In this document: piece after piece, positions 1 through 20,662 of the stretch
Numbering within the stretch: position 1 is the stretch's first letter
Layout: every line of letters begins with the position of its first letter
Origin: an uncultured delta proteobacterium
GTDB taxonomy: Bacteria; Myxococcota_A; Polyangia; Polyangiales; Houyiibacteriaceae
Assembly (NCBI GenBank): GCA_963845195.1
Contig: CAWJRH010000004.1
Location: 1,638,104-1,702,103 of the forward strand
DNA length: 64,000 nucleotides
Direction: 5' to 3'
Notes under the pieces: model-generated
The model's input: only the letters and a program-made list of their open reading frames with translations
Databases searched by the model: none
Told to the model about the DNA's origin: nothing
Program-made: the position numbers and the translations under genes

Positions 1-158
1 AGGACCACCGTCGAGGGATAGATCCCCTCCGACAGGTCGAAGAACTCGAACTGGACTTCGTTGAGCTCGAGGCCAACACGGTATTCGGGCGCCTCGCCGC
101 ACGCCCAGACGAGCATCAGCAAACCGATAGCAGCGCGCTTAGTAAGTGAATTGCACAT
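1..158 (-). CDS. putative lipoprotein, N-terminal part only (gene runs off the window start)
   Basis: The minus-strand ATG at 158 opens MCNSLTKRAAIGLLMLVWAC|GEAPEYRVGLELNEVQFEFFDL..., a signal peptide with a lipobox-like VWAC. The frame stays open to position 1. The start overlaps the last codons of the upstream GH-barrel gene. It is absent from the ORF track because it is under 60 aa in this window. Confidence 0.4.
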   Translation of the reverse strand, partial: MCNSLTKRAAIGLLMLVWACGEAPEYRVGLELNEVQFEFFDLSEGIYPSTVV

Positions 159-3498: not shown

Positions 3499-3600
3499 GC
3501 CGCATGCTCGCCCGTCAGCGTGGTGCGTCTCGCGATCCGACTGTGCATTGGTCCGGAATCTCCCGCTCAAACAGGCGGCGAAGCTGCCCGGTCGTCGAGT

Positions 3601-3619
3601 TTGTTCGAAGAGCGAACCA
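3601..3619. promoter_or_regulatory. candidate operator palindrome TTGTTC-N7-GAACCA in the divergent GH-barrel/ROK intergenic region
   Basis: The sequence ttgttcgaagagcgaacca was read directly. The same TTGTTC-N7-GAAC(A/C)A architecture recurs at 6864-6882. It resembles TTTGTT..AACAAA-type operators of ROK repressors such as XylR. Confidence 0.35.
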
Positions 3620-3733
3620 ACTATCAATTCATCTTCGAAATGTCAACAGCGTCCGCTATTTACCCGATGTTACTCAGTCTTCTCAAACCTCGGAGTCGCT
3701 TGACATTTTTGGGGCGCCAGAATAGTTGGTTCG
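3613..3733. repeat. perfect 12-nt inverted repeat pair CGAACCAACTAT (3613-3624) / ATAGTTGGTTCG (3722-3733)
   Basis: Read directly. Both copies lie in the relatively AT-rich 369-nt divergent promoter region. The right copy overlaps a TTGACA (3700-3705)-N15-AATAGT promoter-like element upstream of the ROK gene. Confidence 0.5.
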
Positions 3734-3867
3734 GACTGCGAACGAAGCAGAGCGAGCGGCATCCGAATGAAAGGCATCCATCAGACCCAAAGCTCCGCGG
3801 CTGCTCCTGCTTGCCTTGGACGAGCGGCGTCCGCCTACTGCAACGCGCCTCGCGCCCGAGGCCAGTG

Positions 3868-5106
3868 ATGTTGCGTTCGAGCCGCGCCACGGGTGAAGTC
3901 CTCGACGCGTCAGCAGTTCGAGCTCAGCACAGCCGACTAATTCTGAATCTGCTCTGGGCAGAACGTGAGATTTCACGGGCGGAATTGGCACGACGCACAA
4001 GCCTCAGCCGCTCGACGGTATCGGCGATCGTGAGCGATCTCCTGGACACGGGCCTCGTCGAAGAGGCACGCACGGGGGTCTCGAACGGCGGTCGGCGCCC
4101 GATCATGCTCGGCTTCCAAGACCAATCGAGCTTCATCGTGGGGATCGAGCTGGGCGCTACACACGTCTCATGCGTGCTCACAGACCTACGGTGCAACGTG
4201 AGAGCCTCCTGGTCTGCACCCGCCCCGGTTCGCGATAATCCTCAGGTCGCGTTGGAGAAGCTCACACTGGGAGTACGCGCCGTGCTGGCGGGGGATGAAA
4301 TCGAACCGTCGCAGCTCCTCGGCTTCGGTGTGGCTGTCCCAAGCCCCGTGGACGATGCGCACCCAGGCGAGCTATTGCCCCTCGTTCTCCCGAAATGGGT
4401 GGGCTACAACATCACCGAGCATCTCCGGAAGAGCTTCGAACGGCCCGTGTTCGTCGACAACGATGCGAACCTCGGCGCCTTGGCCGAGCTGTGGTGGGGC
4501 GCCGGCTCCGAAGGCAACGACCTCGCGTACATCAAGGTGGCAACCGGAATCGGTGCTGGCCTGATCATCAACGGCCGCATTTTTCGCGGGACTGGCGGCA
4601 TCGCGGGAGAGATCGGACACATGTCGATCGACCCGAACGGCGCCCAGTGCATTTGCGGGCTCAAAGGATGCCTCACGACCTTTATCGGTACGCCTGCCTT
4701 ACTGGAGCGCGCCGCACAAGCGTCGCGATCGAACGGCTCCGGGAGCCGCCCACCGCGAACCATCGACGAGTTGGTCGACTCGGCCTTGGCCGGCGACCCA
4801 GCATCCGTGGAGCTGATTCGCTACGCCAGCGAGAAGCTCGGGGTCGGCGTCGCCAATATGCTCAATCTTCTCAACCCGAAGACGGTAGTGCTCGGAGGTG
4901 GCATCGCGCGCGCGGGCGACCTCGTTCTCGAGACGGTCAACCGGACGATTCGCGGACTGTCTCTCCCCGCCTCGATCTCGAAGACCGAGATTCGGACCAC
5001 CGGCCTCAACGAGTGGGGCATCGCGGTTGGGGGTGCGACCCTGGTTCTGCAGAACGCGCTCGAAGCTCCGGCTCTCTTTCCCACTTTGGTGCGAGAAGTC
5101 GGTTGA
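3868..5106 (+). CDS. ROK-family transcriptional regulator (NagC/XylR-like)
   Basis: This is the 3' part of ORF 2830..5106, with the start taken at ATG 3868 (MLRSSRATGEV...). It has an N-terminal wHTH (ISRAELARRTSLSRSTVSAIVSDLLDTGLV), a ROK core (DNDANLGALAE) and a Cys-rich Zn motif (CICGLKGCL). The upstream part of the ORF is antisense to the GH gene. Confidence 0.85.
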   Translation: MLRSSRATGEVLDASAVRAQHSRLILNLLWAEREISRAELARRTSLSRSTVSAIVSDLLDTGLVEEARTGVSNGGRRPIMLGFQDQSSFIVGIELGATHVSCVLTDLRCNVRASWSAPAPVRDNPQVALEKLTLGVRAVLAGDEIEPSQLLGFGVAVPSPVDDAHPGELLPLVLPKWVGYNITEHLRKSFERPVFVDNDANLGALAELWWGAGSEGNDLAYIKVATGIGAGLIINGRIFRGTGGIAGEIGHMSIDPNGAQCICGLKGCLTTFIGTPALLERAAQASRSNGSGSRPPRTIDELVDSALAGDPASVELIRYASEKLGVGVANMLNLLNPKTVVLGGGIARAGDLVLETVNRTIRGLSLPASISKTEIRTTGLNEWGIAVGGATLVLQNALEAPALFPTLVREVG

Positions 5107-6940: not shown

Positions 6941-9274
6941 ATGAAGTTTATATCAGCTCACCTGGTAGCCGCGCTGGTCGCGGTTGCCGCACTCGCAGGA
7001 TGTGCGAGTGACACCACAAGCTCCGATGCTTCGGGCAGCGTGGCGGTCAGCCTCATCGTCGGAAACACCGACGTGAAGGCGGTCTCGTTCGACGTGACCT
7101 GCGACTCGGGGACCAACCTGAGCGGACAGTTCAACGTCAACGACGAGCAAGATCCGCCGATCTGGTCGACGATCATGGACCTGCCCCCGGGCGATTGCAG
7201 CATCACGCTCACCGCGTCCGACGCGCAGGGCGAAGTCCTCTGCACCGGCTCCGAAGACTTCACGGTCATCGCAGACGAGACCGTCAAGGTGAACGTCGTT
7301 CTACTGTGCCCGGGTGAGGGCGAAGACCCGCTCGGCAACGTCGAGATCGATGCGACCTTCGAAATCGTCGAAGGCAACCTCTGCCCGCGACTCAACTTCT
7401 TCAACGCGGTTCCGGACGAAGTGCCGGCCGAAGGCTCCGACGTGACCGTTCTCGCGAGCGACCCCGATGGCGGCATGCTCTCGATCCTGCTCAGCGCGAC
7501 GGGCGGCAGCTACGCGGACCCAACCGCAGCATCGACCACCTACACCTGTGATGGTGCCGCTGGCACGCAGACACTCTCCGTCACAGTCAGCGACGGCGAC
7601 GCGGCATGCGACAAGAGCAAGAGCTTCGACGTCACCTGCCCCGGCGAGAACCTTTGCGACAACGTCGTCTGTGAAGACGATGGAAACGTTTGCACCGACA
7701 TCGCCTGCAATCCGGCGAACGGCGAGTGCGAGGCCACGAACAACACCAACGAGTGCAACACGGGTGGCGGCGGCGACATCGCCATCAACGGCGGATTCGA
7801 AACCGGTGCGTTCAACGACGGCAGTCCTGATGCGAGCTGGCAGCAGTTCCCGAACGGCGGCACCCAGGCGATCACGACCGACAACCCGTCCGAAGGCACC
7901 TTCGCGGCCAACCTCATCGTACCGGTCCGCACGCAGGGCGCCCCGCCTGTCGACAACCTCATCAAGAACGCCAACCTGCAGGCTGGAAACCTCACGCCTG
8001 GACAGGCGATCACAGTCACTTGGGACATGCGCGGTGAGCTCATCGGCGCGGGTGGCGTCGTATTCGTCGAGCTCTTTTCGGAGTTCGCGGGCGGAGGCGC
8101 GACCGGAGAGATCTACACCGGCGGCCCGATCTTCCCGAACGCAGACTGGGAGTCCTTTACCTGGAACACCAACCTCGGCGCTGACGTCGCCGGCGGCGTG
8201 ACCCTCCAGCTCAAGGTCTCGTGCGGACCGGTCGAAGGCTGTGGCGCGAACGTCTTCTTCGACAACGTAACGATCGTCATCGAAGGCGGACCCGGCGAGC
8301 CCGGCACCTGCAGCGAAGGCATCTGCGTTCCGAACGCGGAATGCACCACCGCCGCAGACTGTCCGGACACCGGCAACGAGTGTGTGGACGCTGTGTGCAA
8401 CGCGGGGACCTGCGGGATCTCCAACAACACCAACGTGTGTGACGGCGGAGCCGGCACCTGCGACGGGCAGGGCAACTGTGTGCCCGACGCAGAGTGCACC
8501 ACCGGGGCGGACTGCCCGGACGACGGCAACGAGTGCACCGACGCGGTGTGCAACGCGGGGACCTGCGGGACCTCGAACAACAGCAACGTGTGCGACGGCG
8601 GTACCGGCATTTGCGAAGCAGGAGCCTGTGAGCCCATCGCTGAAGTCGTTTACTCGCAGGACTTCAACTCGCTCGATGCGGCCAACGGCGGCGCCCTAGG
8701 CGGCGACGGCTGGTTGGTCTTCGGCAACGTGTTCACCGGCGCCGGTGTCTTCAAGTTCGGCTTCGGACCGTTCTCGGCACCCAACGGCGGCCCAGGGTTC
8801 TCGGCAATCGTCGACGACCAGGGCGGCCCTGAGCAGGAACCACAGCAGCTCAGCGTGTACAACGACTACAACTGCTGCCAGTCGACCAACGAGGGCCACT
8901 TCAACGGCACCGACCTGGTCGAGGCCATTGTCCTGCAGGAGCCACGCCCGCTGGGCGCTCCCATCACGGCGTCCGACATCGGCAAGACGTTCACGTTCAG
9001 CTTCGATGCCAAGAACGGCGACATCCAGCCGCCCACCACGGCACGAGCGTTCATCCAGACGCTCATTCCTCCGTCGTTCGGCCAGACCAACTTCGTCGAA
9101 GTTGACATGACCAACATCGGAACCGACTGGAACCGCTACGAGATCTCGTTGGACCTCACGGACCCGGCCCTCCAAGGCCAGATCCTGCAGTTCGGCTTCT
9201 CGAGCAACGCGTCGGACTTCAACAACTCGCAGAACGTCTACGACAACGTCCTCGTGACCTTGTCGGCACCCTAG
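6941..9274 (+). CDS. surface lipoprotein with N-terminal 4-Cys module, CBM4/9-like domain, Cys-rich repeats and a C-terminal CBM-like domain (putative glycan-binding protein)
   Basis: - The lipobox is AALAGC|AS.
- The N-terminal module is shared with genes 9505 and 17032.
- The segment INGGFETGAFNDGS...FFDNVTIV looks like a CBM_4_9 jelly roll.
- There are two near-identical repeats, ECTTAADCPDTGNECVDAVCNAGTCG.SNNTNVCDGG.
- The C-terminal domain AEVVYSQDF... is paralogous to the C-terminus of 17032..19089. Confidence 0.8.
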   Translation: MKFISAHLVAALVAVAALAGCASDTTSSDASGSVAVSLIVGNTDVKAVSFDVTCDSGTNLSGQFNVNDEQDPPIWSTIMDLPPGDCSITLTASDAQGEVLCTGSEDFTVIADETVKVNVVLLCPGEGEDPLGNVEIDATFEIVEGNLCPRLNFFNAVPDEVPAEGSDVTVLASDPDGGMLSILLSATGGSYADPTAASTTYTCDGAAGTQTLSVTVSDGDAACDKSKSFDVTCPGENLCDNVVCEDDGNVCTDIACNPANGECEATNNTNECNTGGGGDIAINGGFETGAFNDGSPDASWQQFPNGGTQAITTDNPSEGTFAANLIVPVRTQGAPPVDNLIKNANLQAGNLTPGQAITVTWDMRGELIGAGGVVFVELFSEFAGGGATGEIYTGGPIFPNADWESFTWNTNLGADVAGGVTLQLKVSCGPVEGCGANVFFDNVTIVIEGGPGEPGTCSEGICVPNAECTTAADCPDTGNECVDAVCNAGTCGISNNTNVCDGGAGTCDGQGNCVPDAECTTGADCPDDGNECTDAVCNAGTCGTSNNSNVCDGGTGICEAGACEPIAEVVYSQDFNSLDAANGGALGGDGWLVFGNVFTGAGVFKFGFGPFSAPNGGPGFSAIVDDQGGPEQEPQQLSVYNDYNCCQSTNEGHFNGTDLVEAIVLQEPRPLGAPITASDIGKTFTFSFDAKNGDIQPPTTARAFIQTLIPPSFGQTNFVEVDMTNIGTDWNRYEISLDLTDPALQGQILQFGFSSNASDFNNSQNVYDNVLVTLSAP
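8339..8640 (+). repeat. two tandem ~50-codon Cys-rich coding repeats
   Basis: The repeats were read from the translation and the DNA. They are near-identical to the repeats on the opposite strand at 17646-18250. Confidence 0.8.
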
Positions 9275-9297
9275 CCAATCGGGGTTCTCACAGTGAG

Positions 9298-9336
9298 GAC
9301 CCGGCCTGTGCACCCCTCCAGGATCCAGGCCGGGTC
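9298..9336 (+). terminator. putative terminator hairpin after the CBM lipoprotein gene
   Basis: GACCCGGCCTG-(17 nt)-CAGGCCGGGTC forms a perfect 11-bp stem starting 24 nt after the stop codon. There is no clear T-tract. Confidence 0.4.
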
Positions 9337-9504
9337 GACTCACTCATGACACGGCGTCAAGTGACGCATGCTGCAGCAGCAGTTCCATCAGGGACTCCAA
9401 CGAAGCAGCCTTACTGAGCGTAGACACGGTGGCGGGGGCAAACGAGCCCACCGCCATCGTGTTTGCCTGATCTTGGGGGAAGTGACTCGCATCTCTCGAA
9501 TTTC

Positions 9505-10653
9505 ATGAATTACTCATTCCTTTTTCTGTCTGCCGCCACGCTCCTACTCGCGACCACGCTTGTCGGCTGCGCCGACGATGCTCCGAGCGAAGAGACCTTC
9601 CGCGGCGTTCGAATCGACCTAGTCATTGGGGATGTCGACGTGCCCGCGCTGACTTTTGATGTCATCTGCGAGGATGGCTTCGAGCTGAGCGGACAGTTCA
9701 ACGTGAACGACGACCTCGATCCGCCCGTCTGGTCCGCGCTCATGGACCTGCCCGTTGGCGACTGCAGCATCACGCTCACGGCGCCCGACGACGAGGGCAT
9801 CCCTATCTGTTCCGGCTCTTCCGATTTCACGGTGCGCCTCAACGAGACGGCGAAGGTCAACGTCGTGCTGACGTGCTTCGTCAACTCGCACGACGAAGGC
9901 GAGCCTGAGTGCGTCACCCTCCCCGACTGCGAGCTGGTCTGGGCCGACGAGTTCAATGGCGATGCCGTGGACCTGACGAAGTGGGAGTTCCAACTCGGCG
10001 ACGGAACTCAGTTCGGCATCCCGCGCTGGGGCAACCAAGAGCTCCAGTGGTACATGTCGAGAAACGCCACCGTGGCAGACGGCGTCTTGACCATCCAGGC
10101 ACGAGAAGAACGTATTGGACGCTTCAACTACACCTCATCGCGTCTTCGCTCTCTCGGCAAAGGTGACTGGACGTACGGTCGCTTCGAGATGCGCGCGAAG
10201 CTGCCGGTAGGGCAAGGCATGTGGCCCGCGTTTTGGATGCTGTCGAGCGACCCCTCAATTTACGGCGAGTGGGCCGCAAGCGGCGAGATCGACATCATGG
10301 AATCAACCGGCGACGACCCGGACAGAATCCTCGCCACGATTCACTACGGCCGCACGGCACCCGAAAACGAGTCTTCTAGCTCCAGCACACGGCTCCCCGA
10401 AGGGGGCGCGAGCGAGTTTCACGAGTACGCCATCGAGTGGAAGGCCGGCCAAATCGACTGGTACCTCGACGGTGAACTCTATGCCACGCGCACTAGCTGG
10501 TACTCGAGCGGCGGGCCCTATCCTGCGCCTTTCGACGTCGACTTTCATCTCCTTCTCAACCTCGCCGTAGGCGGCAATCTGCCGGGCGACCCGGACGCAA
10601 CAACCGTCTTTCCGCAGGACTTCGTCATCGACTACGTGCGGGTCTACCAATAG
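9505..10653 (+). CDS. GH16 endo-beta-1,3-glucanase (laminarinase) lipoprotein with the shared N-terminal module
   Basis: The start is taken at ATG 9505 (MNYSFLFLSAATLLLATTLVGC|ADD). GH16 motifs are WADEFNG and the catalytic ExDxxE in GEIDIMES. The protein ends DYVRVYQ. Confidence 0.9.
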   Translation: MNYSFLFLSAATLLLATTLVGCADDAPSEETFRGVRIDLVIGDVDVPALTFDVICEDGFELSGQFNVNDDLDPPVWSALMDLPVGDCSITLTAPDDEGIPICSGSSDFTVRLNETAKVNVVLTCFVNSHDEGEPECVTLPDCELVWADEFNGDAVDLTKWEFQLGDGTQFGIPRWGNQELQWYMSRNATVADGVLTIQAREERIGRFNYTSSRLRSLGKGDWTYGRFEMRAKLPVGQGMWPAFWMLSSDPSIYGEWAASGEIDIMESTGDDPDRILATIHYGRTAPENESSSSSTRLPEGGASEFHEYAIEWKAGQIDWYLDGELYATRTSWYSSGGPYPAPFDVDFHLLLNLAVGGNLPGDPDATTVFPQDFVIDYVRVYQ

Positions 10654-10655
10654 AG

Positions 10656-11711
10656 ATGATGCGACCAATGCCTCTCGCCGCAATCGCGGTCACTGTCGCC
10701 GGGTGCCACTCGGCACCCGACGAGACGCGCACCACTATCGATGCATCACGTGAGCAAGCACCCAACGGATTGTTGGCCGGAGAAGTCATGGCAGTTGCGT
10801 ATTCGGGCTTTCGCGAGGGCCAGTACCCAGATCGAGGCGACGGTGCGGTGAACCCGAGCCCGGAAGAAATCCTCGAGGACCTCGAGCTCCTCGTCGCTCA
10901 CGGGTTCAGGCTCATCCGCTTGTACGATTCGGGCGACAACTCGTCATTGACCCTGGAGCTCATCAGGAAACACCGACTCCCGATCAAGGTGCTCCTTGGG
11001 ATCTGGCTCGAGGCGGAGGTCAGCAACCACGAAGGCTGTCCGTGGCTTCACGAGCCGATTCCCGAAGAGGCGCTGGAGGCCAACACCTGGGCGAACGCGG
11101 CCGAGCTTCGACGCGGGATCGCGCTCGCGCGGCAATTCGAGGACGTCGTGGTCTCGGTGAATGTGGGAAACGAAGCCTTGGTCGATTGGAACGATCATAT
11201 GGTGCCGGTCAAGAAGGTGATAGCCTACGTTCGCCTCGTGAAAGCCGCTGTCGAGCAACCCGTCACGGTGGCTGAGAACTACGCCTGGTGGATACGCGAC
11301 GGTGCTGCACTGGCAGCCGAAGTGGATTTCCTGGGTGTGCATACGTACCCAGAGTGGGAGGGCAAGACCATCGATGAGGCCCTCCCCTATACCCTCGAAA
11401 ACATCGAAGGTGTTCGGCAGGCGCTACCCGACAAACAGATTGCGATCCTCGAGGCGGGCTGGGCAACCACGGCAGTCGAGTTCGGTGACCGGGCCAACGA
11501 GGCGAACCAGGCGCGCTACTATCTCGAACTCGAGGAATGGGCCCGGAGCACGAACACGACCGTGTTCTTCTTCGAGGCATTCGACGAGCCGTGGAAAGGC
11601 GAGGCGAACGCCCCGCTCGGCGCCGAGAAACACTGGGGACTCTTCAACGTCGATCGAACGCCCAAAGAGTTCCTTCGCACGCGGTCGAACGCAGACGCCG
11701 AAGCACGCTGA
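10656..11711 (+). CDS. GH17-family beta-1,3-glucanase/transglycosylase, lipoprotein
   Basis: The lipobox is TVAGC. GH17-type motifs are VSVNVGNEALV (acid/base) and AILEAGWAT (nucleophile position, equivalent to ETGWPS), followed by FFFEAFDEPWKG...KHWGLF. Confidence 0.85.
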   Translation: MMRPMPLAAIAVTVAGCHSAPDETRTTIDASREQAPNGLLAGEVMAVAYSGFREGQYPDRGDGAVNPSPEEILEDLELLVAHGFRLIRLYDSGDNSSLTLELIRKHRLPIKVLLGIWLEAEVSNHEGCPWLHEPIPEEALEANTWANAAELRRGIALARQFEDVVVSVNVGNEALVDWNDHMVPVKKVIAYVRLVKAAVEQPVTVAENYAWWIRDGAALAAEVDFLGVHTYPEWEGKTIDEALPYTLENIEGVRQALPDKQIAILEAGWATTAVEFGDRANEANQARYYLELEEWARSTNTTVFFFEAFDEPWKGEANAPLGAEKHWGLFNVDRTPKEFLRTRSNADAEAR

Positions 11712-11732
11712 GCGCGAGCACTCTCGAATGAT

Positions 11733-12497
11733 TCATTCGACCAACACGACCGAGCCGAACAGGCCCGCGTCGATCCAGCCGCGGTCCTTCTTGTCCCCGG
11801 GCGCCGACTCAGAGCCAACGAAGTTCTCGCGGAGCTCGCTGCCGTCGTTGTCGCAGTAGGCAAGCATCAGGCCTATCACTTTGCCAGGCACCAGCTTGAC
11901 GGGTTCGTTCTTGTCGGAACCGTCGACGTAGTCGTCTGCGTAGATGTCGATTGCGACCTCCCAGACGATCTTGTTGCCGTACTGCCGCCAGCGGCTCTGA
12001 ACGTGATGCGAGTAGCTGTGGGGCGCCTTGTCGGTACCGATGTCGATGGCCTGGTTGTCGAGCGACACGTGATAGGCGAACGCGTTGTGGTTGTATTGGT
12101 GATCGCCGCCAGAGTAGTCCTCGTCGACGAAGACCTCGAGACAGTCGTCATCCCAGTACTGGACGAGCGGGTCACGGTGGCTGTCGAACAAGATGTCGTC
12201 GACGAACTCGCCGAGAATGTAGATGCGCTCCGAAGTCCAGACCACCTTGAAGCGGCCCTGAAAATCGGTCTTCGAGTACTCCGGGCCGAGCCAACGGTGC
12301 GTGAGCGCCTGCCAGCGAGCGCGCTTCCACACGGCCTCGTCCGCCACGCCATCGACCGTGGGCGCCTGCCGGGCGCGAGGCGCGCGATACTCGGTGCGCC
12401 CCGGGTAATGAGTGGAACCCTTCGCGAAAGCGAGAGGTGTGGCACACAGCCCAAGCGCCGCAAGCGCAACGCACAACATGGCGCCCACACGAAGCAT
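11733..12497 (-). CDS. secreted CBM9-like carbohydrate-binding protein
   Basis: It has a signal peptide ending LAFA|KG. The segment PTVDGVADEAVWKRARW...FKVVWTSERIYILGEFVDD...WDDDCLEVFVDEDYSGG matches the CBM9/DOMON-like pattern by eye. Confidence 0.6.
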   Translation of the reverse strand: MLRVGAMLCVALAALGLCATPLAFAKGSTHYPGRTEYRAPRARQAPTVDGVADEAVWKRARWQALTHRWLGPEYSKTDFQGRFKVVWTSERIYILGEFVDDILFDSHRDPLVQYWDDDCLEVFVDEDYSGGDHQYNHNAFAYHVSLDNQAIDIGTDKAPHSYSHHVQSRWRQYGNKIVWEVAIDIYADDYVDGSDKNEPVKLVPGKVIGLMLAYCDNDGSELRENFVGSESAPGDKKDRGWIDAGLFGSVVLVE

Positions 12498-12536
12498 GCC
12501 TCGACCTAGGTGCTCCGTCCGCTCCGCTCGACGGCG

Positions 12537-13511
12537 TCAGACAAACTTCGGCTCGCCTTCCTCGTTCCAGAGTCCCCAGTAGGCTCCGACATCACCCTCA
12601 TCGCTGGTCTTCCAGGTTTCGTCGAAGGCCGAGAAATAGAACACCTCAATGCCGTCGGCGTTGGCCCATTGATAGGTCCTGATGAAGTACTCGAGCGCAG
12701 CGTCGTAGGACGGCACGGCGGCACCGAAAGCGGACCCCGAAGTAGGCCAGCCCGTTTCACTGATGATGACTGGTTTTCCATCGGCTACGTTTTGCGCGCG
12801 TCGATACATCTCTTTCATATACAGCAGGGCATATTCCGCAGGACAGCTCTCCCAGAACGGATAACAGTTGACCAGCAGCGTGTCGCAGGCCGCAGACACG
12901 CGGGGGTGGTTCTCGAAGAGGAAGTAGGCATCGACGGTCCCCACGGGAACACCGGGGACCGAAGCCTTCGCGCGTTCGATGTACTGGATGAGCTGCGTTT
13001 CGGTGAGGTCTTCGCGAAGCATGACTTCGTTGCCGACCGCGAGAATGTCGGCGTGCCCCGCCCGGGCAACCTCGATGCCATTGCGTAGCTCGACTTCGTT
13101 CGCGTCCAAATCGCCCGACAGGCTGATTCCCACCATCGTCCGAAGCCCGAACTCACGCGCGATACGAGCCGTTTCCTGCTGTCCGTCGATGCATGAGAAA
13201 CTCCGGACCCACCGCGTGTACGGCGCGATGATGCTCATCCGTCCGCGTATCTGGTCGGCGCCGATATCACGCCCAGGAGCCTGTCCCGGCAAATACGGGC
13301 TGAAGGACATGCCATGGATCTTGTGACGCAGGATCGTCTGAAGGAGCGCCACCTTCTTCGCACGCGACATCTGTGAGAAATCGGTACCGAGAAGCCCCGG
13401 AAACCCCGGCAGCTTATAGCCGGAACGTCGGAACGCCACGGCAGCGCTCGACAGGGAGCTGACTGAGAACTCTTTGTGGTTGACTCCGGACACGATTCTC
13501 GCGTGGTGCAC
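12537..13511 (-). CDS. GH17-family beta-1,3-glucan hydrolase/transglycosylase without detectable signal peptide
   Basis: Motifs are ILAVGNEVML, the canonical VIISETGWPTSG, and FYFSAFDETWK...YWGLW. No hydrophobic N-terminal segment appears for any candidate start (M1 or the internal MSRAKK). Confidence 0.85.
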   Translation of the reverse strand: MHHARIVSGVNHKEFSVSSLSSAAVAFRRSGYKLPGFPGLLGTDFSQMSRAKKVALLQTILRHKIHGMSFSPYLPGQAPGRDIGADQIRGRMSIIAPYTRWVRSFSCIDGQQETARIAREFGLRTMVGISLSGDLDANEVELRNGIEVARAGHADILAVGNEVMLREDLTETQLIQYIERAKASVPGVPVGTVDAYFLFENHPRVSAACDTLLVNCYPFWESCPAEYALLYMKEMYRRAQNVADGKPVIISETGWPTSGSAFGAAVPSYDAALEYFIRTYQWANADGIEVFYFSAFDETWKTSDEGDVGAYWGLWNEEGEPKFV

Positions 13512-13541
13512 ACCACGCCCCAGCGCCGGACATTAGCACGC

Positions 13542-13561
13542 CGGTTCGCCTGATTGAACCG
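13542..13561. promoter_or_regulatory. inverted repeat CGGTTC-N8-GAACCG upstream of the cytoplasmic GH17 gene
   Basis: Read directly in the 65-nt gap between the GH16 stop (13577) and the GH17 start (13511). The half-site GGTTCG/CGAACC also occurs in the 3601-3733 region. Confidence 0.3.
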
Positions 13562-13576
13562 TGAAACTTCGCGCGT

Positions 13577-14986
13577 TCAGTCTGACGGGTCGACCCGCCT
13601 ATAGACCCTGACGTAGTCCACAAGCATCGTCTGGGGATAGGTCTCGGTGCCCGTGGGCGGTTGGTTGTTGCTGCCCAGTGTCCCGCCCATCGCGACGTTG
13701 AAGATCATGTAGAACTCTTCGAGGAACTCGCTCATCGTCTCTGGATTGATCGACTTGACAAAGTAAGTAATCCCGTCGATTTTGCCGACGATCTTGCTCT
13801 CGTCCCATTCGGCCCCGAAGAGGTGAAAGTCATCGCCAAGTGAGGTGTCGAAGGACTTGTTGGCGCTGACGAAGACCCGCCCTTCAGGAAACGAACAGGT
13901 CTCCGGAGCCTGGATCGACTCGTCGCACCAGTGGATCGTGAAATGCGTCGTTCTCTCGTTTGAGAACGCGTTGTGAAGCTCCATGAAGTCGATTTCGCCC
14001 GAGCGTGGCCACCCCACGGTCGGGAAGTTCGCTCCGAGTGCCCAGAACGCGGGCCACGCGGCCCTCCCAACGGGGGCCTTGATCCGGGCCTCTACTTTGC
14101 CGAACTTGAAATTGACCTTGTTGAGGGAATTGATCTTTCCTGATGTAATCGTTCCATCGCGGACACCGCAGGGCGGCGCAGGACACAACGCGGAGAGCAC
14201 CAGGTTGCCATCTTCGACGCGCACGTTGTCTGGCGACTCCGTATAGAGCTGCCACTCGTTGTTGCCCCATCCTTCGTTGCCGTATCCGGTCTCGATGGTC
14301 CAGTTGGTCGGATTCGGAGCCGTTCCCGAATCAAAGCCATCCTCGAAAACCAGCTCGTACTCGACATCGCTTGGCGGGCAGCCGTCTGACTGCGTGATCC
14401 CGTCGTAGTAGAATGTCCAGTCATCCGGATCGTTGCCCGCATCGCCGGTGACTCCCAGGTCAAAGATGACCGTGATTGCCGTAGCTTCGTCCCCGTCGGT
14501 GCCATCCGCGAAGTCGAAACATAGCTCTTCCCAGGCACCGCTCCCGCCATGCGCGGCCGGTCGCTCTTGCTCCAACCCCTCGAGCTTGAACAGTACGTCT
14601 GCGGGACGTGTGGACCAGACCTTCATCGTGAAGGCCGTGCCCGACCCCCAATCGACCGAATCGTCGAGCATGAGCGTGCTTCCGCCAAACACCTCGCCGG
14701 GGAATTTCTGCATTCTTGCAGCCTTGGGCGTCGCGTTGATTCCGCTCGGATCGGGATTGTCGACCACTCTCGACACGCCCCCGCCGAAATCAACGAAGGT
14801 GAACGGACCGCACGCGTCCTCGAACTCGACCGCGTCTGCGCAGTTCGCTGGTGGGGGTTCAGGGCGCTCAGGGCGCTCAGGCTCCTCGGTGGAGCCGACG
14901 CTTTCGTTGCTACAGCCGACCAAGCCGGCAATCAGCAAGAGAGAAACGCACACGCGCGGAAGCGGCGAGCGGTGTTTGGTGTACAT
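13577..14986 (-). CDS. GH16 endo-beta-1,3-glucanase (laminarinase) lipoprotein with an N-terminal CBM-like domain
   Basis: The lipobox is IAGLVGC|SNE. A ~170-aa beta-sandwich-like N-terminal domain precedes the GH16 catalytic ExDxxE in GEIDFMEL. The protein ends DYVRVYR. Confidence 0.9.
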   Translation of the reverse strand: MYTKHRSPLPRVCVSLLLIAGLVGCSNESVGSTEEPERPERPEPPPANCADAVEFEDACGPFTFVDFGGGVSRVVDNPDPSGINATPKAARMQKFPGEVFGGSTLMLDDSVDWGSGTAFTMKVWSTRPADVLFKLEGLEQERPAAHGGSGAWEELCFDFADGTDGDEATAITVIFDLGVTGDAGNDPDDWTFYYDGITQSDGCPPSDVEYELVFEDGFDSGTAPNPTNWTIETGYGNEGWGNNEWQLYTESPDNVRVEDGNLVLSALCPAPPCGVRDGTITSGKINSLNKVNFKFGKVEARIKAPVGRAAWPAFWALGANFPTVGWPRSGEIDFMELHNAFSNERTTHFTIHWCDESIQAPETCSFPEGRVFVSANKSFDTSLGDDFHLFGAEWDESKIVGKIDGITYFVKSINPETMSEFLEEFYMIFNVAMGGTLGSNNQPPTGTETYPQTMLVDYVRVYRRVDPSD

Positions 14987-15148
14987 GAAAAAACTCCAAG
15001 GAAACGTGCAGCCAAGAGCATAGTTCTATTGCCCGGTCGGGGTAGCCCCACGGCCACCCTTTTCCAAGCAAACTCAGGCTTTTTAGGCCAAATCCACAGT
15101 ACGAGAGATGGGCCGCGTCGTACAGGACGCCGTGCTAGGCAGTAGCCG

Positions 15149-16975
15149 ATGGGGCGCGTGAGGAAACATGACTGGGCCGCTACGTTGCGCGTGGTCGCGC
15201 GCGCGCTCGTACTCTCGTGCGCCTGCCTGGCCTTGTGGCCATCCGCCGGTGCGGCAGAGCCCATCCCCGTCGAGCTACGTCGCACAGAGGAAGGCTGGCA
15301 GCTACTGCGGGGCGGCAAGCCGTATTTCATTCGCGGCGCGGGCGGCGACGCTTCCCTCGAGCAACTTGCAGCCGCCGGCGCCAACTCTGTGCGCACCTGG
15401 GGATCGGACGACCTCGAAGCGAGTCTCGACGCGGCCCACGCGCTTGGCCTGTCGGTGACCGTTGGCATCTGGCTTGGCCACGAACGCCATGGGTTCGACT
15501 ACGGCGAAGAGGCCCAGGTGCGCGAGCAGCTCGAACGCGCCCGCAAGACGGTGCTCCGCTACAAAGACCATCCGGCGGTTCTTCTCTGGGGCATCGGCAA
15601 CGAGATGGAGGGCTTCGACTCGGGTGACAACCCAGCCATCTGGCGTGCAGTCAACGACATTGCCAGTATGGTCAAGAAGCTCGACCCGCACCATCCGACC
15701 ATGACCGTCACCGCCGAGCTTGGGGGCGGACGGATCGAAGGCGTTCACAAGCACTGCCCGGCGATCGACATTCACGGCATCAACTCCTACGGCGGTGCGA
15801 CCAGCGTCGCCGAACGCTACCGCGCCGCCGGAGCAACCAAGCCGTACATACTCACGGAGTTCGGGCCACCTGGCGTCTGGGAAACCCCGAAGACCGATTG
15901 GGGCGCACCCCTCGAGCCAACGAGTTCAGAGAAGGCGGCGTTCTACCGACGCAGCTATCAGCGTGGCATCCTCGACGCCCGGGGCCTTGCGCTCGGTTCG
16001 TACGTCTTTACCTGGGGCTCCAAGATGGAGGCAACCCCGACCTGGTACGGCATGTTTCTCGATGACGGCGCTCCACTTGGAGCAGTCGACGTCATGACCG
16101 AGCTCTGGTCGGGCACCCCCCCGAAAAACCTCGCGCCCACGATAGACCCCCTGGTGATAGACGCTCAACCAGAGCTCGACGCAGGCCAGGAGCTGCGCGT
16201 GCGGGCCGTGGTCACCGATCCAGAACGTTCGGCGCTCCGTGCGCGCTGGGTGCTGCGGCGCGAGCCCGGCGAATACTCGACCGGGGGCGACGCCCGGCCC
16301 GTGCCACCGGAGGTGACAGGCGCGATCCTCGAGGCGCGCACCGACGGAGCGCGCGTGCGCATGCCGAACGAGCCGGGCCCCTATCGGCTGTTCCTGACTG
16401 CCTACGACGCCGAAGGTAAAGCCGCCACGGCGAACGTGCCGCTCCGCGTGAAGGGCCAAGTGCGCACACCGATGCCTTTCTACGTGTACCAAAACGGTTT
16501 CGAGGGCATGCCCTGGACGCCCTCGGGCTGGATGGGTTCGACCGAATCGTTGACTCTCGATGGCAGCCATACCGTCAACCCGTACGATGGTGACGCCTGC
16601 ATCGAGGTTCGCTTCGAGGGCGACATCGGAACCTGGGTCAGCGTCGCCTGGCAGCACCCTCCCAACAACTGGGGAGATCAGGAAGGTGGCTACGACCTCA
16701 CGGGGGCGGGTTACCTCGAGTTCTGGGCTCGAGGCAAGTTCGGTCCGGAACAGATCAGCATCGGTGTCGGACTCCTTGGCGCCGACAAGGCACACCCCGA
16801 TTCAGCGAAGACTACGGTCGACGATATGCGGCTGACGCACGAGTGGAAGCGGTACCGCGTTCGTCTCAAGCGACTCGACCTCTCCAGCATCAAGACGGGC
16901 TTTGTCGTGACGCTCACCGGGCAAGGCTCGCCTGTGACGGTCTACCTCGACAGCATTCGCTTCGTCGCCAGGTGA
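15149..16975 (+). CDS. secreted clan GH-A TIM-barrel glycosidase (paralogous in layout to the 139..3498 catalytic domain) with a C-terminal CBM-like domain
   Basis: A signal peptide is present (...CLALWPSAGAAEP). Motifs are LLWGIGNEMEG and PYILTEFGPPG. The C-terminal ~170 aa, FYVYQNGFEG...VYLDSIRFV, looks like a jelly-roll CBM. Confidence 0.75.
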   Translation: MGRVRKHDWAATLRVVARALVLSCACLALWPSAGAAEPIPVELRRTEEGWQLLRGGKPYFIRGAGGDASLEQLAAAGANSVRTWGSDDLEASLDAAHALGLSVTVGIWLGHERHGFDYGEEAQVREQLERARKTVLRYKDHPAVLLWGIGNEMEGFDSGDNPAIWRAVNDIASMVKKLDPHHPTMTVTAELGGGRIEGVHKHCPAIDIHGINSYGGATSVAERYRAAGATKPYILTEFGPPGVWETPKTDWGAPLEPTSSEKAAFYRRSYQRGILDARGLALGSYVFTWGSKMEATPTWYGMFLDDGAPLGAVDVMTELWSGTPPKNLAPTIDPLVIDAQPELDAGQELRVRAVVTDPERSALRARWVLRREPGEYSTGGDARPVPPEVTGAILEARTDGARVRMPNEPGPYRLFLTAYDAEGKAATANVPLRVKGQVRTPMPFYVYQNGFEGMPWTPSGWMGSTESLTLDGSHTVNPYDGDACIEVRFEGDIGTWVSVAWQHPPNNWGDQEGGYDLTGAGYLEFWARGKFGPEQISIGVGLLGADKAHPDSAKTTVDDMRLTHEWKRYRVRLKRLDLSSIKTGFVVTLTGQGSPVTVYLDSIRFVAR

Positions 16976-17031
16976 CGGCCAGCAGAAAGACACATGGGAA
17001 CCCGTCCTTCGCCGGCCGAAGCCCTGCCGGG

Positions 17032-19089
17032 CTAGGGTGTTGGCGCCGAGGTAAGCACGAGGTTGTCGTAGAACACCCCGGACGGCTGGTTGTTCGTCGT
17101 CGTCGCCGAGAATCCAAACTGAAGAATTTGGCCTACGAGCGCTGGGACGATTGGGAGTGAGATGGAGTAGGTGTTCCAGTCTGTCGAAATGCTGGTCGTA
17201 TCGACCGTCACCAAGTTGGTTTGGTCGAAGGCGGGCGGGGCCAGCGTTTTGATGAACGCATACGCCTCGCTTGTGCCCGAGATGTCGCCACGTTTCGCCT
17301 GGAACTCGAACGTGAGCGTATTCCCCACATCGGTCCCTGCGATCGTGAATTCCTGGAACGTAAGCCCCTCGACGTTGTTGCCAGCGGTCTGATTGGCCTG
17401 GTTCTGGTAGTCGCTGATGATGACCAGCTGCTGAGCACCCTGCTCAGGACCACCTTCCCCCGCTGCGATGAGCGAGAAGGCAGCCTGCGGTGGGTTGTTT
17501 GGCGCAGGAAACGTTCCGTAGAAGGCGATGACCGTATCCGTCATGCCCTCGAACACGTTGCCGAACACCAGGAATCCGACATCACCCAACGCGGTCAGGC
17601 TCGCTTGGTTGAGCGATTCGAAGTTCTGCGAGTAGACGACCTCAGCATTCGGCTCACAGACCCCAGCGCTGCAGGTGCCCGTGCCGCCCTCGCACGAATC
17701 GGTGTTGTTCGAGGTTCCGCAGTTCCCTGCGTTGCACACCGCGTCCACACACTCGTTGCCTGTGTCAGGGCAGTCCGCGTTCACCGTGCATTCCGGGTCC
17801 GGTACGCAAAGGCCTCCGTCGCAGGTACCGTTCCCGCCGTCGCACACGTTCGTGTTGTTCGAGGTCCCGCAGGTCCCCGCGTTGCACACTGCGTCCACAC
17901 ACTCGTTGCCGGTGTCCGGACAGTCCGCGTTCACCGTGCATTCCGAGTCCGGTACGCAAACGCCTCCTTCGCAGGTGCCGTTCCCGCCGTCACACACGTT
18001 GGTGTTGTTCGAGGTTCCGCAGGTCCCCGCGTTGCACACCGCGTCCACACACTCGTTGCCCGTGTCCGGGCAGTCCGCCGCGGTGCTGCATTCCGCGTCG
18101 GAGACGCAGTTGCCCTGCCCATCGCAGGTTCCGTTGCCGCCGTCGCAGACGTTGGTGTTGTTGGAGGTCTCGCAGGTCCCCGCGTTGCACACCGCGTCCA
18201 CACACTCGTTGCCCGTGTCCGGGCAGTCCGCCGCGGTGCTGCATTCTGGCGGCGCTTCGATACACATCCCGTCAACGCAGGTCTCGCCCGCATCGCAGTC
18301 GTCATCGACCGTGCACTCGGGAGGGGCTCCCCCGACGCCTGCCATGCCGCCCGCGCCGCCGGTTCCGCCGGTTCCGCCGGTTCCGCCGGTTCCGCCGGTT
18401 CCGCCACCATCGACGCAGCGCACTGCGACTGTCCATCCGCTTACGCAGACGTCGAAGTCGTCATCAGACACCTTGATCGTCACTGACTGATCGCCCGCCG
18501 TTCCGCAGGTGTATGTGGTCGAGCTTGCGCCCGGGTCGGCAATCGTGCCGCCGGTCGCGCTCCACATGTACCGGCTCGCGTCGCCTTCCGCATCGACGGC
18601 GGTTGCCATGAGATCGATGTCGTTTCCGACCGAGGTCTGTAGTGGAGAGACGACCACTTTGGTCAGCTCGGCGCAGATGTTGAGCTTCCCGTTTACGCGA
18701 ACCGAACCGAACTGCGGAGGCCGAGTGCAGCGAAGCATCACGTGCACCTCGGTCGCAGCGCCGACCTCGACTCCGAACGGAGCCGATCCTCGGCAGACTG
18801 TGCCGTCCGCCGCCGCCGCAGCCATCTCGATTTCGTAGTCGTCGCAGGCCGGTAGCCCGAACACCTCGACCGAGGCTGTCGCCTCCGGAGCGCTGACATC
18901 GATGGTGCCGACCATGGACGGCATGTCGCAGCCGCTGATCTCCCAATCGACCTCCGCGATCTCGACTCCGTCGGCAAGGGTGAGGTTCAGCGCAAGCGAC
19001 CCTGTGTCCGGGTCGGCATCGGTCGAGCAAGCACCGACCCCCATGAGACTGGCTACACCGAAAACGAGAGCGAACGTGGAGCGGTTCAT
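17032..19089 (-). CDS. surface lipoprotein, paralog of 6941..9274: 4-Cys N-terminal module, (GGT)n linker, four Cys-rich repeats, C-terminal CBM-like domain
   Basis: The lipobox is MGVGAC|ST. There are four copies of EC(S/T)xxADCPDTGNECVDAVCNAGTCGTSNNTNVCDGGNGTC. The C-terminal AEVVYSQNFESL... is homologous to the C-terminus of 6941..9274. Confidence 0.8.
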   Translation of the reverse strand: MNRSTFALVFGVASLMGVGACSTDADPDTGSLALNLTLADGVEIAEVDWEISGCDMPSMVGTIDVSAPEATASVEVFGLPACDDYEIEMAAAAADGTVCRGSAPFGVEVGAATEVHVMLRCTRPPQFGSVRVNGKLNICAELTKVVVSPLQTSVGNDIDLMATAVDAEGDASRYMWSATGGTIADPGASSTTYTCGTAGDQSVTIKVSDDDFDVCVSGWTVAVRCVDGGGTGGTGGTGGTGGTGGAGGMAGVGGAPPECTVDDDCDAGETCVDGMCIEAPPECSTAADCPDTGNECVDAVCNAGTCETSNNTNVCDGGNGTCDGQGNCVSDAECSTAADCPDTGNECVDAVCNAGTCGTSNNTNVCDGGNGTCEGGVCVPDSECTVNADCPDTGNECVDAVCNAGTCGTSNNTNVCDGGNGTCDGGLCVPDPECTVNADCPDTGNECVDAVCNAGNCGTSNNTDSCEGGTGTCSAGVCEPNAEVVYSQNFESLNQASLTALGDVGFLVFGNVFEGMTDTVIAFYGTFPAPNNPPQAAFSLIAAGEGGPEQGAQQLVIISDYQNQANQTAGNNVEGLTFQEFTIAGTDVGNTLTFEFQAKRGDISGTSEAYAFIKTLAPPAFDQTNLVTVDTTSISTDWNTYSISLPIVPALVGQILQFGFSATTTNNQPSGVFYDNLVLTSAPTP
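17646..18250 (-). repeat. four tandem ~49-50-codon Cys-rich coding repeats plus a degenerate half repeat
   Basis: The repeats are visible in both the translation and the DNA. Segment 17865-17922 is the reverse complement of 8360-8417 with 57/58 identity by manual alignment. Confidence 0.85.
18361..18405 (-). repeat. perfect 9-bp tandem repeat (ggttccgcc) x5 encoding (GGT)5
   Basis: Read directly from ggttccgccggttccgccggttccgccggttccgccggttccgcc. It is in frame inside gene 17032..19089. Confidence 0.9.
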
Positions 19090-19204: not shown

Positions 19205-20662
19205 TCACAAAACGAAGGCCACGGGCCACCCGCGTCGGAAGAGTGCGTCTACTTTCCCTCGCAGGCCGCGATGTCGTCCTGAGTGACTCCCGAGATCCGC
19301 TGCGGCCGCTTTGAGCTCCTGGGCAGTCGCGTCCGCGCTCTGTGCCTCGTTTACCGCCTCGCCGACCTCCGCGACCCCCGCCCGCCCCGCGCTCTTCGAC
19401 GCGACGCTGAGAAGTCGTCCAAGACCCCTCTTCCGCTTCTTCGCGGCCTCGGCGGCAGCCATTCGCTCTTTCAGGCAGGCCTCTTGTGCTGGCGTCATCG
19501 AGCTCGACGCGCCGGCTGAGGGTGCTGCCCCGGCAGGGGTTGCCGAACGCTGGCTGTCCGAAACGGCGGCCGGCACCTTGGCCGCAGGGGGTCCGCCGTT
19601 GCACCGAATGCTGATGATACGGGACTCGATCTCCATCCCGCCGCCTGCGGCAAGGCTCTCGAGCATCTTTCGCTGCGGTCCCATCTGATTCATGACCATC
19701 TCACGCTGCTCGGGCGGCATCGAGGCCATCTGCTTGTCGAAATCTGCGAGCTTGGCTCGGGCCTCCTCAAGCTGGGCTTTGTCTTCAGCGTTCAGCATGC
19801 CGGACATCTTCATCACGGAGACGAAGGGTTCGTACATGCCGCCGCAGCCGGGGACCTCTCGATAGTCCCTGTCGTTCCGCTCGAGGACGATCGGGCGCGT
19901 CTCGGTACCCTGGCGCATCGTGCCTTCGATTCTCATTCGCACCGGTACGTACCGCTTCGCGTCGACCCACATCCGTACACGATCCACTTCAAACTCGCCC
20001 TCGTCGACGCGTTGCTTCGTCCCCTCACCCTTTGACTCGACAACGATCGTCTTCTTGCCATCAACGGTCTCCCGACCGACGACCTTCGACCGCGCCTTCA
20101 TCCTCTGAAGGTCTTTCGACAACTGTTTTGAATCCGCCTTGGCGTCGGCGGAGCGCTGACGCTCGCCCTCGGCCGCGCCGCCGAGCATCGTCGCGTACAT
20201 GCCGGTCATGTCGCTCGGGTTCGCCGAAAGCCAGGGCTCGTCCTCATTCGACGCGATCAGCATGTCGCCCACGCCTGGTGGCAGCCCTGCGGACTGCATC
20301 TCCTGGTGCATCCCCTGTTCCATCTGCGCCCCTGCCCCAGGCATCGCCGCTGCGGCGCGATCGAGGTCCCCGGCGGTCGCACCGGTGGTTGAGGATCCGC
20401 TCACCGGAACGCTCCGCATCACGTACGCGGTTTGTCCGTTGCTCAGCCGCACCTGCGCCTCCTTTTCGAAGTACGAGAGCGTCTCAACCCCCATCACCTC
20501 GACTTGCATCACGTAATTGTCGATGCCCTCGAGGGCTTCGTTGTCGGCGCGGATCATCTTGTCGATTACCTGCTCGGCCGACTGCCCGTGGGCCGACCCA
20601 GAGGCCGCAACAACGGCAAAAAGCGACGCTGCGACGGCTACAAGGTTCCGAGCTGTTCGCAT
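19205..20662 (-). CDS. secreted Met-rich hypothetical protein (possible 3'-end frameshift)
   Basis: It has the signal peptide MRTARNLVAVAASLFAVVAASGSAHG. Met-rich stretches include AQMEQGMHQEMQ and MASMPPEQREMVMNQMGPQRKM. The last ~27 codons are Arg-rich with low GC3. The +1 frame reads GVTQDDIAACEGK* with high GC3 and ends at 19249. Confidence 0.6.
   Translation of the reverse strand: MRTARNLVAVAASLFAVVAASGSAHGQSAEQVIDKMIRADNEALEGIDNYVMQVEVMGVETLSYFEKEAQVRLSNGQTAYVMRSVPVSGSSTTGATAGDLDRAAAAMPGAGAQMEQGMHQEMQSAGLPPGVGDMLIASNEDEPWLSANPSDMTGMYATMLGGAAEGERQRSADAKADSKQLSKDLQRMKARSKVVGRETVDGKKTIVVESKGEGTKQRVDEGEFEVDRVRMWVDAKRYVPVRMRIEGTMRQGTETRPIVLERNDRDYREVPGCGGMYEPFVSVMKMSGMLNAEDKAQLEEARAKLADFDKQMASMPPEQREMVMNQMGPQRKMLESLAAGGGMEIESRIISIRCNGGPPAAKVPAAVSDSQRSATPAGAAPSAGASSSMTPAQEACLKERMAAAEAAKKRKRGLGRLLSVASKSAGRAGVAEVGEAVNEAQSADATAQELKAAAADLGSHSGRHRGLRGKVDALFRRGWPVAFVL

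Follow-up and report, generated by a model that had tools for sequence, protein, structure and literature searches.

Two paralogous lipoprotein genes with inverted cysteine-rich repeats

We studied a 64-kb stretch of DNA, called here the window, from the genome of an uncultured marine bacterium of the Myxococcota (order Polyangiales; contig CAWJRH010000004.1, positions 1,638,104 to 1,702,103). Two convergent genes for predicted lipoproteins, A on the plus strand and B on the minus strand, bracket six beta-1,3-glucan (laminarin) genes and carry, in inverted orientation, a cysteine-rich unit of ~50 amino acids (aa) with 8 Cys each, which no other gene of the window contains. An original prediction, made from the letters of the DNA, had described the two open reading frames (ORFs), their units (A1-A2 at 8339-8641, B1-B4 at 18246-17644) and six glycan genes enclosed between arms about 9 kb apart, and all these elements were confirmed. 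It had also proposed that the repeats are undergoing conversion and provide a substrate for inversion of the enclosed cassette or for a change in repeat number. Comparison with two relatives shows directly that interlocus gene conversion between A and B is episodic and starts in the repeats; in the window it is probably old. The parts of the two genes and the arms that they form are the following.

6941..9274, plus strand: ORF of gene A, predicted lipoprotein of 777 aa, lipobox LAGC
7664..7771, plus strand: divergent partial Cys unit of A (aa 242-277) at the junction between N-terminal module and carbohydrate-binding module (CBM), with direct and inverted matches; score of 9-11 with the hidden Markov model (HMM) of the unit
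8339..8641, plus strand: two full Cys units of A, A1 (8339-8491) and A2 (8492-8641), unit HMM scores 88 and 84
8642..9271, plus strand: C-terminal beta-sandwich of A, CBM-like, with an aa identity of 49-52% to its counterpart in B and of 78% to the one in the L001 ortholog
17032..19089, minus strand: ORF of gene B, predicted lipoprotein of 685 aa, lipobox VGAC
18356..18405, minus strand: perfect 9-nucleotide (nt) tandem repeat (CCGCCGGTT, 5.6 copies) in the GGT-repeat linker of B (tandem-repeat scan, translation)
17644..18246, minus strand: four full Cys units of B, B1 (18246-18094), B2 (18093-17944), B3 (17943-17794) and B4 (17793-17644) (unit HMM, tandem-repeat scan)
17035..17643, minus strand: C-terminal beta-sandwich of B, differing in type from the one in A; the domain nearest to it (81% aa) belongs to an A-type protein, P0015
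8293..8674, plus strand: left arm at its widest, with a core at 8339-8622 (87%) and a 57/58 stretch at 8360-8417
17611..17989, minus strand: right arm, in the register reaching the start of the C-terminal domain; best register 17963-18246, 57/58 stretch at 17865-17922 (unit B3)

From its N-terminus, A consists of two immunoglobulin (Ig)-like domains (weak Big_9/PKD matches), followed by the partial Cys unit and a CBM4/22-like beta-sandwich, and then by two Cys units and the C-terminal beta-sandwich. B likewise starts with two Ig-like domains, which are followed by a (GGT)n linker, a short partial unit, its four Cys units and a C-terminal beta-sandwich of its own. The lipobox cysteines (...VAALAG-C21 in A and ...LMGVGA-C21 in B) were read from the translations, and Cys21 is invariant in 18 A orthologs. 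The units of B form a tandem array with a period of 150 nt and 88% matches, and are 86-94% identical among themselves, in frame. The 9-nt repeat of the linker is also in frame and is a candidate for slippage altering linker length.

Similarity of the repeats and divergence of their flanks

The best pair of arms (8339-8622 versus 18246-17963) aligns over 284 nt at 87% identity with a blastn E of 3e-95, and the widest pair (8293-8674 versus 17611-17989) over 382 nt at 78%; the arms are 8.9-9.5 kb apart, their longest exact shared stretch measures 35-37 nt, and the identity of unit against unit is 74-90% at the nt level. The original prediction had called these repeats almost identical, quoting the 57 matches out of 58 between 8360-8417 and the reverse complement of 17865-17922. 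That match holds and the similarity is far beyond chance, but the 57/58 stretch, which encodes CPDTGNECVDAVCNAGTCG, itself unchanged in five out of six units, is a local maximum within arms of 87% or 78% identity. Past position 8674 the identity of A and B drops from 97% to ~50-60% and blastn finds nothing further.

The stronger divergence claimed for the flanking domains was borne out. The repeat block of A and that of B are 79% identical in both aa and nt, as compared with 33% aa (49% nt) for the N-terminal domains and 52% aa (61% nt) for the C-terminal ones. Synonymous divergence (dS, by Nei-Gojobori, the units being compared as A1+A2 versus B1+B2), a check proposed with the prediction, was 0.375 for the units and 1.20 for both the N-terminal and the C-terminal domains. 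On its face, the lower dS of the units speaks for a more recent common ancestry of the repeat DNA.

Homogenisation of the paralogs in related genomes

The homologs of A and B stem from metagenome-assembled genomes (MAGs) of marine Myxococcota and Polyangiales, and two of these carry the same A(+)...B(-) bracket as the window: Myxococcales 21_Jan_SF_Bin46 (MAG m; loci L004/L006/L010) and MFD09964.bin.1.42 (MAG d; loci L008/L017), in which A and B are inverted and 15 kb apart, near 146973-149330 and 164780-166927 of contig_20795. In what follows, the prefixes w, m and d stand for the window and these two MAGs (wA1, for instance, being unit A1 of the window). The genes used for MAG d and a sister strain are as follows.

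L008 10001-12358: A of MAG d
L017 10001-12148: B of MAG d
L003 10001-12358: A of the sister strain

The N-terminal domains cluster by gene, with 58-72% aa identity in the A group, 47-89% in the B group and 25-32% between A and B; since they group by gene across genomes, the duplication is old. The C-terminal domains cluster by genome, dA and dB being 99% identical and mA and mB 87%, versus 38-55% between genomes. The dS between A and B tells the same story: in MAG d it falls from 1.51 in the N-terminal domain to 0.000 in the C-terminal one, and in MAG m from 1.46 to 0.152.

In MAG d, the A/B tract is 928 nt long at 97% identity, with an exact run of 782 nt. It starts within the repeat block, where identity climbs over ~120 nt from 52% to 100%, and its 3' limit lies ~30 nt short of the stop codon. 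The sister strain is 98.7% identical to MAG d over 12 kb, and at all 32 tract sites where its A differs from dA, dA is identical to dB (32/32). The tract is moreover 84% identical over its whole length to the B ortholog of a different lineage, and this resemblance indicates that B was the donor.

In MAG m the paralogs align over 969 nt at 84%, and the C-terminal beta-sandwich of both (L004 11657-12259; L006/L010) is circularly permuted with respect to that of the window (8642-9271): a segment resembling residues 130-205 of the C-terminal domain of A precedes one resembling residues 2-128. This form is restricted to 3 of 200 family proteins (P0014, P0072 and P0138); evidently, one paralog of MAG m received the rare permutation as a copy from its partner.

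The protein P0015 (L018 463-2736) comes from a different metagenome; its N-terminus is of A type (69% to wA) and its C-terminus is 81% aa identical to that of window B and 48% to that of window A. The corresponding dS is 0.56 for the C-terminal domain against B (17035-17643), while the N-terminal comparison with A is saturated (1.21). This protein reflects either a C-terminal swap in its lineage or the transfer of a module between lineages.

Probable gene conversion in the window lineage

Within the window, concerted evolution has left a fainter mark, since similarity within the genome exceeds that between genomes for the units only, and weakly. The original prediction had spoken of ongoing gene conversion or concerted evolution; as a process of this locus this is supported by the dS of 0.000 and 0.152 in the relatives, but "ongoing" does not apply to the window. 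We consider it likely that the arms are alike through conservation of the unit throughout the clade combined with interlocus gene conversion initiated in the repeats, an exchange that is old in this lineage.

The evidence for exchange in the window comes from the units themselves. The dS of 0.375 between A1+A2 and B1+B2 lies below every comparison of these units with their orthologs in other genomes (0.55-0.63; 0.92-1.47 for the flanks of those orthologs). The nearest neighbors of wA1 are wB2 and wB1 (89-90% nt), with wA2 (84%) and the orthologous units of other genomes (80-84%) farther away. The A and B units have the window-specific residues V16, N21 and V33 in common, and wA1 and wB1 are both of a 51-aa form with a DGQGNC tail.

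These observations have to be weighed against a simpler explanation, in which no exchange took place in the window lineage, the likeness of A and B is due to strong family-wide purifying selection on an 8-Cys fold together with synonymous conservation, and MAG d and MAG m are irrelevant. Several results speak in its favor and thus weigh against conversion in the window. Units of different genomes are ~80% identical in nt, synonymous positions included, and where their residues are identical they use the same codon in a fraction of 0.74-0.77, close to the 0.79 (with 85% nt identity) of A versus B units of the same genome and far above the 0.46-0.62 (~0.53) of orthologous MFS, GH17, CBM9 and ROK genes from the same loci. 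Because units of different genomes are already so alike, most of the signal noticed originally is a property of the unit throughout the clade. The window-specific excess of A/B similarity is real but small and rests on about a dozen sites per unit. The clade of wA1, wB1 and wB2 has a bootstrap of 67%, and the six window units do not form a clade (bootstrap 7%). The unit wA2 retains the signature of orthologous second units, CPDDGNECTD, and was thus not converted. The relatives, for their part, are MAG assemblies, in which polishing or collapse could exaggerate the identity of paralogs. Finally, no close relative of the window organism was found (best matches of 65% for A and 51% full-length for B in the protein collection, and 55% in metagenome contigs). 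We nevertheless regard a complete lack of exchange as unlikely, given the low dS of the units, the position of wA1, the residues and tail common to A and B, and the direct observation of the process at the same architecture in two other lineages.

The same-codon fraction had also been set against a codon-usage null (0.72-0.79 versus 0.48) as proof of window-specific conversion; this argument was dropped, because units of different genomes give 0.74-0.77.

It could also be that B received its array once from A, or the reverse, and expanded it in tandem with no later exchange. Units A1, B1, B2 and B3 do coalesce at a similar depth (dS 0.26-0.54), and module shuffling is rife in the family. The B orthologs of every other lineage, however, bear arrays at the same position, which makes the array ancestral to B, and homogenisation is independent and of different age in three lineages, which indicates a recurrent process. 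A single transfer is therefore extremely unlikely.

Interlocus gene conversion would thus work as follows. A and B are ancient paralogs with a unit strongly conserved throughout the clade, and would have exchanged sequence non-reciprocally, together with unequal exchange within the B array, through a recombination whose enzymology we infer. Tracts would begin in the repeat block, the first stretch common to both genes, and could continue as far as the 3' end, thereby replacing the C-terminal glycan-binding-like domain. In the window the last exchange would be old (dS about 0.4) and confined to unit DNA (8293-8674), the C-terminal domains still being of different types, while in the relatives the same process is recent and long.

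Codon conservation in the Cys unit

The synonymous conservation of the unit concerns individual codons. Among 24 units, Glu1 is GAA in 19, Glu14 is GAG in 23 and Gly12 is GGC in all, while Gly23 is GGA or GGG and never GGC. Even non-preferred codons, such as GAA at Glu1 and GGA or GGG at Gly23, are kept position by position across genomes, which is a further point in favor of likeness arising through conservation alone. When six A orthologs are compared at their invariant residues, the fraction of identical codons amounts to 0.53 in the N-terminus, 0.60 in the CBM, 0.73 in the units and 0.72 in the C-terminus; the regions with conserved codons are thus those undergoing conversion.

Several causes were considered for this conservation. 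An RNA structure was not supported, with a z-score of the minimum free energy of only -2.2, a covariation term of -1.4 kcal/mol in RNAalifold and compensatory pairs at 2 of 23. Codon bias is at best a partial explanation, the GC content at third codon positions (GC3) being slightly higher in the units (0.80-0.88) than in the rest of the gene (0.69-0.84). GC-biased conversion may contribute, yet it leaves the conserved A-ending and T-ending codons unaccounted for. One could also imagine that unit DNA is kept alike at the nt level because it serves as a shared homology junction, through which C-terminal glycan-binding domains move between lipoproteins. This idea stems from the conservation of synonymous sites and non-preferred codons, the presence of units at every module junction and the occurrence of N- and C-terminal types in all combinations. 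We hold it to be quite improbable; if true, it would amount to a recombination-based domain-exchange system adapting to glycan diversity.

Orientation of the enclosed cassette

The original prediction also saw in the inverted repeats a substrate for RecA-mediated inversion of the cassette between them, which consists, in order from A to B, of GH16, GH17, CBM9, GH17, GH16 and GH2_C-like genes, each identified by a profile match:

9463..10653, plus strand: GH16 gene, with an N-terminus homologous to the N-terminal module of A
10656..11711, plus strand: GH17-like gene (GH17a), 78% aa identical to its orthologs in L008/L010
11733..12497, minus strand: CBM9_1 domain protein
12537..13511, minus strand: GH17 gene (GH17b)
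13577..14986, minus strand: GH16 gene (GH16b)
15149..16975, plus strand: glycosidase with a GH2_C-like TIM barrel, adjoining B in most relatives

In such a scenario, homologous recombination between the repeats would invert the 9-kb segment and switch between two lipoprotein variants. The geometry is favorable: the arms are inverted and in a common codon register, 8339 and 18246 both being first codon positions, so that a crossover would preserve the frame, exchange the C-terminal domains between A and B and turn the six genes around. Within the family, every combination of N-terminal and C-terminal types occurs, an example being the A-type N-terminus and B-type C-terminus of P0015, and the 782-nt perfect inverted repeat of MAG d would be an efficient substrate, which makes this genome the best place to expect real inversion isomers.

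The synteny comparison suggested with the prediction was run on the relatives and revealed no flip. Counting from the B N-terminus, the order GH2-like(-), GH17b(+), CBM9(+), GH17a(-) is alike in the window, MAG d, L015 and L019. L020 agrees over its extent, and MAG m has no GH2-like gene at that position but is otherwise alike. Order and orientation are hence constant in every lineage examined with enough context, and the inverted isomer (GH17a(+), CBM9(-), GH17b(-)) was never seen in them. What the relatives show is homogenisation and not reciprocal swapping. A gene for an invertase or integrase is missing from the neighboring ORFs; Pfam scans covering 20 ORFs (139 to 31065) returned glycosidases, MFS, ROK, OmpA, YkuD, ComEC and others, but no recombinase. 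The window arms, lastly, are 87% identical with exact runs of at most 37 nt. For RecA recombination in E. coli, such divergence cuts exchange by orders of magnitude, and the arms would accordingly be a poor RecA substrate. The proposal of cassette inversion thus found no support in the single orientation of all lineages, the lack of a recombinase and the 87% arms, and we judge it very unlikely.

The locus shares with the Hin/Gin/Piv invertases, the shufflons and the invertible promoters of Bacteroides the presence of inverted repeats around surface-related genes. It differs from them in having no recombinase, in arms that are long diverged coding repeats and in the single orientation of all relatives, and therefore does not count as a programmed inversion system. 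The reading as a composite transposon with inverted repeats at its ends was rejected as well, the arms being in-frame parts of conserved paralogs, with no transposase and with a conserved bracket.

Variation of unit number

A change in repeat number, also foreseen in the original prediction, is supported by comparison among orthologs. A orthologs have nearly always two units and a few have one, while in B orthologs 2-4 canonical units are accompanied by divergent ones. Among these B orthologs (L015), P0033 (5 units) and P0054-56 (3 units) are 99% identical save for an exact gap of 100 residues, or two units. For this pair the gap is either a true copy-number polymorphism or a collapse in short-read assemblies.

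Predicted structure and role of A and B

The Cys unit is absent from the usual domain collections. It has no Pfam match, whether searched within A, within B or as an isolated four-unit block (E <= 10), and no NCBIfam match (E <= 0.1); neither Dicty_CTDC (PF00526), nor DUF4215 (PF13948), nor the NCBIfam Myxococcus cysteine-rich repeat matches the unit of A or B, although some homologs have weak, precomputed PF00526 matches. A sequence search of the PDB with the unit returned only a marginal match to CD5 (E = 0.027). The middle domain of A (residues 279-455) has no Pfam match either, while its orthologs carry PF02018 (CBM_4_9).

The AlphaFold2 model of A has a predicted local distance difference test (pLDDT) of 73.5, with 80-93 in the C-terminal domain. 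In fold searches it matches CBM22, CBM4, CBM16 and CBM61 structures (Foldseek probability 1.00, target-normalised template-modelling score 0.56-0.66), the surface glycan-binding protein (SGBP) SGBP-B of Bacteroides (7kwb) and reelin repeats, which have a similar layout of beta-sandwich, small Cys-rich module and second beta-sandwich. From these features we infer that A and B are surface glycan-binding lipoproteins of a beta-1,3-glucan locus, putatively laminarin-binding, in which the Cys units would act as disulfide-bonded spacers.

This would bring A and B close to the SusE/F-like SGBPs of Bacteroidota, with which they share a lipoprotein signal, an Ig-like stalk, beta-sandwich CBM-like domains, membership in a glycan locus with GH16, GH17 and an MFS transporter, and the fold-search matches to SGBP-B (7kwb) and CBM4/16/22. 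They differ in their Myxococcota host, the lack of a SusC/D pair, the Cys-rich spacers, which are absent from the Bacteroides proteins, and the lack of sequence-level membership.

Comparison with known cases of concerted evolution

According to a phylogenomic survey, recurrent concerted evolution is rare in prokaryotes, with 19 bacterial and 7 archaeal genes, of which tuf is the classic case, and concerns mostly genes of core complexes (PMC6053082). As for tufA/tufB, A and B stem from an ancient duplication, lie in distinct conserved contexts and can be closer to each other within a genome than to their orthologs, and this has recurred in several lineages. Unlike in tufA/tufB, only the 3' part is homogenised (the repeats, alone or together with the C-terminal domain), and the N-terminal halves stay at 25-32% aa; the genes encode accessory surface lipoproteins and not subunits of core complexes; the boundary of the tract falls on a tandem repeat inside the gene; and in the window homogenisation has largely decayed. 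A and B also resemble the tandem-repeat surface proteins of bacteria, with in-frame units, a variable unit number and near-identical proteins differing by whole units, but here exchange also occurs between inverted genes 9 kb apart and, in the relatives, carries a non-repeat domain along.

The mechanism is not new, and the signal in the window is old and modest. The locus nevertheless offers a clean, lineage-replicated case of partial-gene concerted evolution in bacteria, with dS values of 0.00, 0.15 and 0.38 (units only) in three lineages. In practice, neither orthology nor glycan specificity can be transferred along the full length of such proteins, and short-read assemblies of these loci risk collapse. 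In addition, the analysis describes a beta-1,3-glucan locus of Myxococcota whose SGBP-like lipoproteins are made of shuffled modules, among them a Cys-rich unit that Pfam and NCBIfam lack and a CBM-like domain in circularly permuted form.

Neighboring genes

GH16 and GH17, each found twice in the cassette, are marker families for laminarin degradation (PMC10811738). A direct repeat (7118-7302 versus 9685-9869, 78% nt) shows that the neighboring GH16 protein has at its N-terminus the same Ig-like lipoprotein module as A. Across the family this anchor module is fused to GH16, to a C-terminal domain with GH17, or to a CBM with units and a C-terminal domain, and these varied fusions indicate extensive module shuffling.

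On the 5' side, the bracket is preceded by genes for a ROK regulator and an MFS_2 sugar transporter. The ROK ORF (2830-5106, plus strand, 758 aa) has probably been called too long on its 5' side: ROK/NagC homology spans residues ~370-745, the proteins of relatives have 362-412 aa, the first ~244 residues are antisense to a GH2_C-like ORF of 1162 aa (139-3627, minus strand), and tblastn with the N-terminal region matches the opposite strand in other loci.

A collection of 15 billion proteins contains A of the same contig (P0001) but lacks the exact B protein, and the source annotation may have called B with another start or not called it at all. Directly upstream of B, on the same strand, lies an ORF of 485 aa (19205-20662, minus strand) that has neither a Pfam nor an NCBIfam match. 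The sequence beyond B varies in every relative (ATP-binding cassette transporter, solute-binding protein, rubredoxin cluster), and these differing flanks make B the variable edge of the locus.

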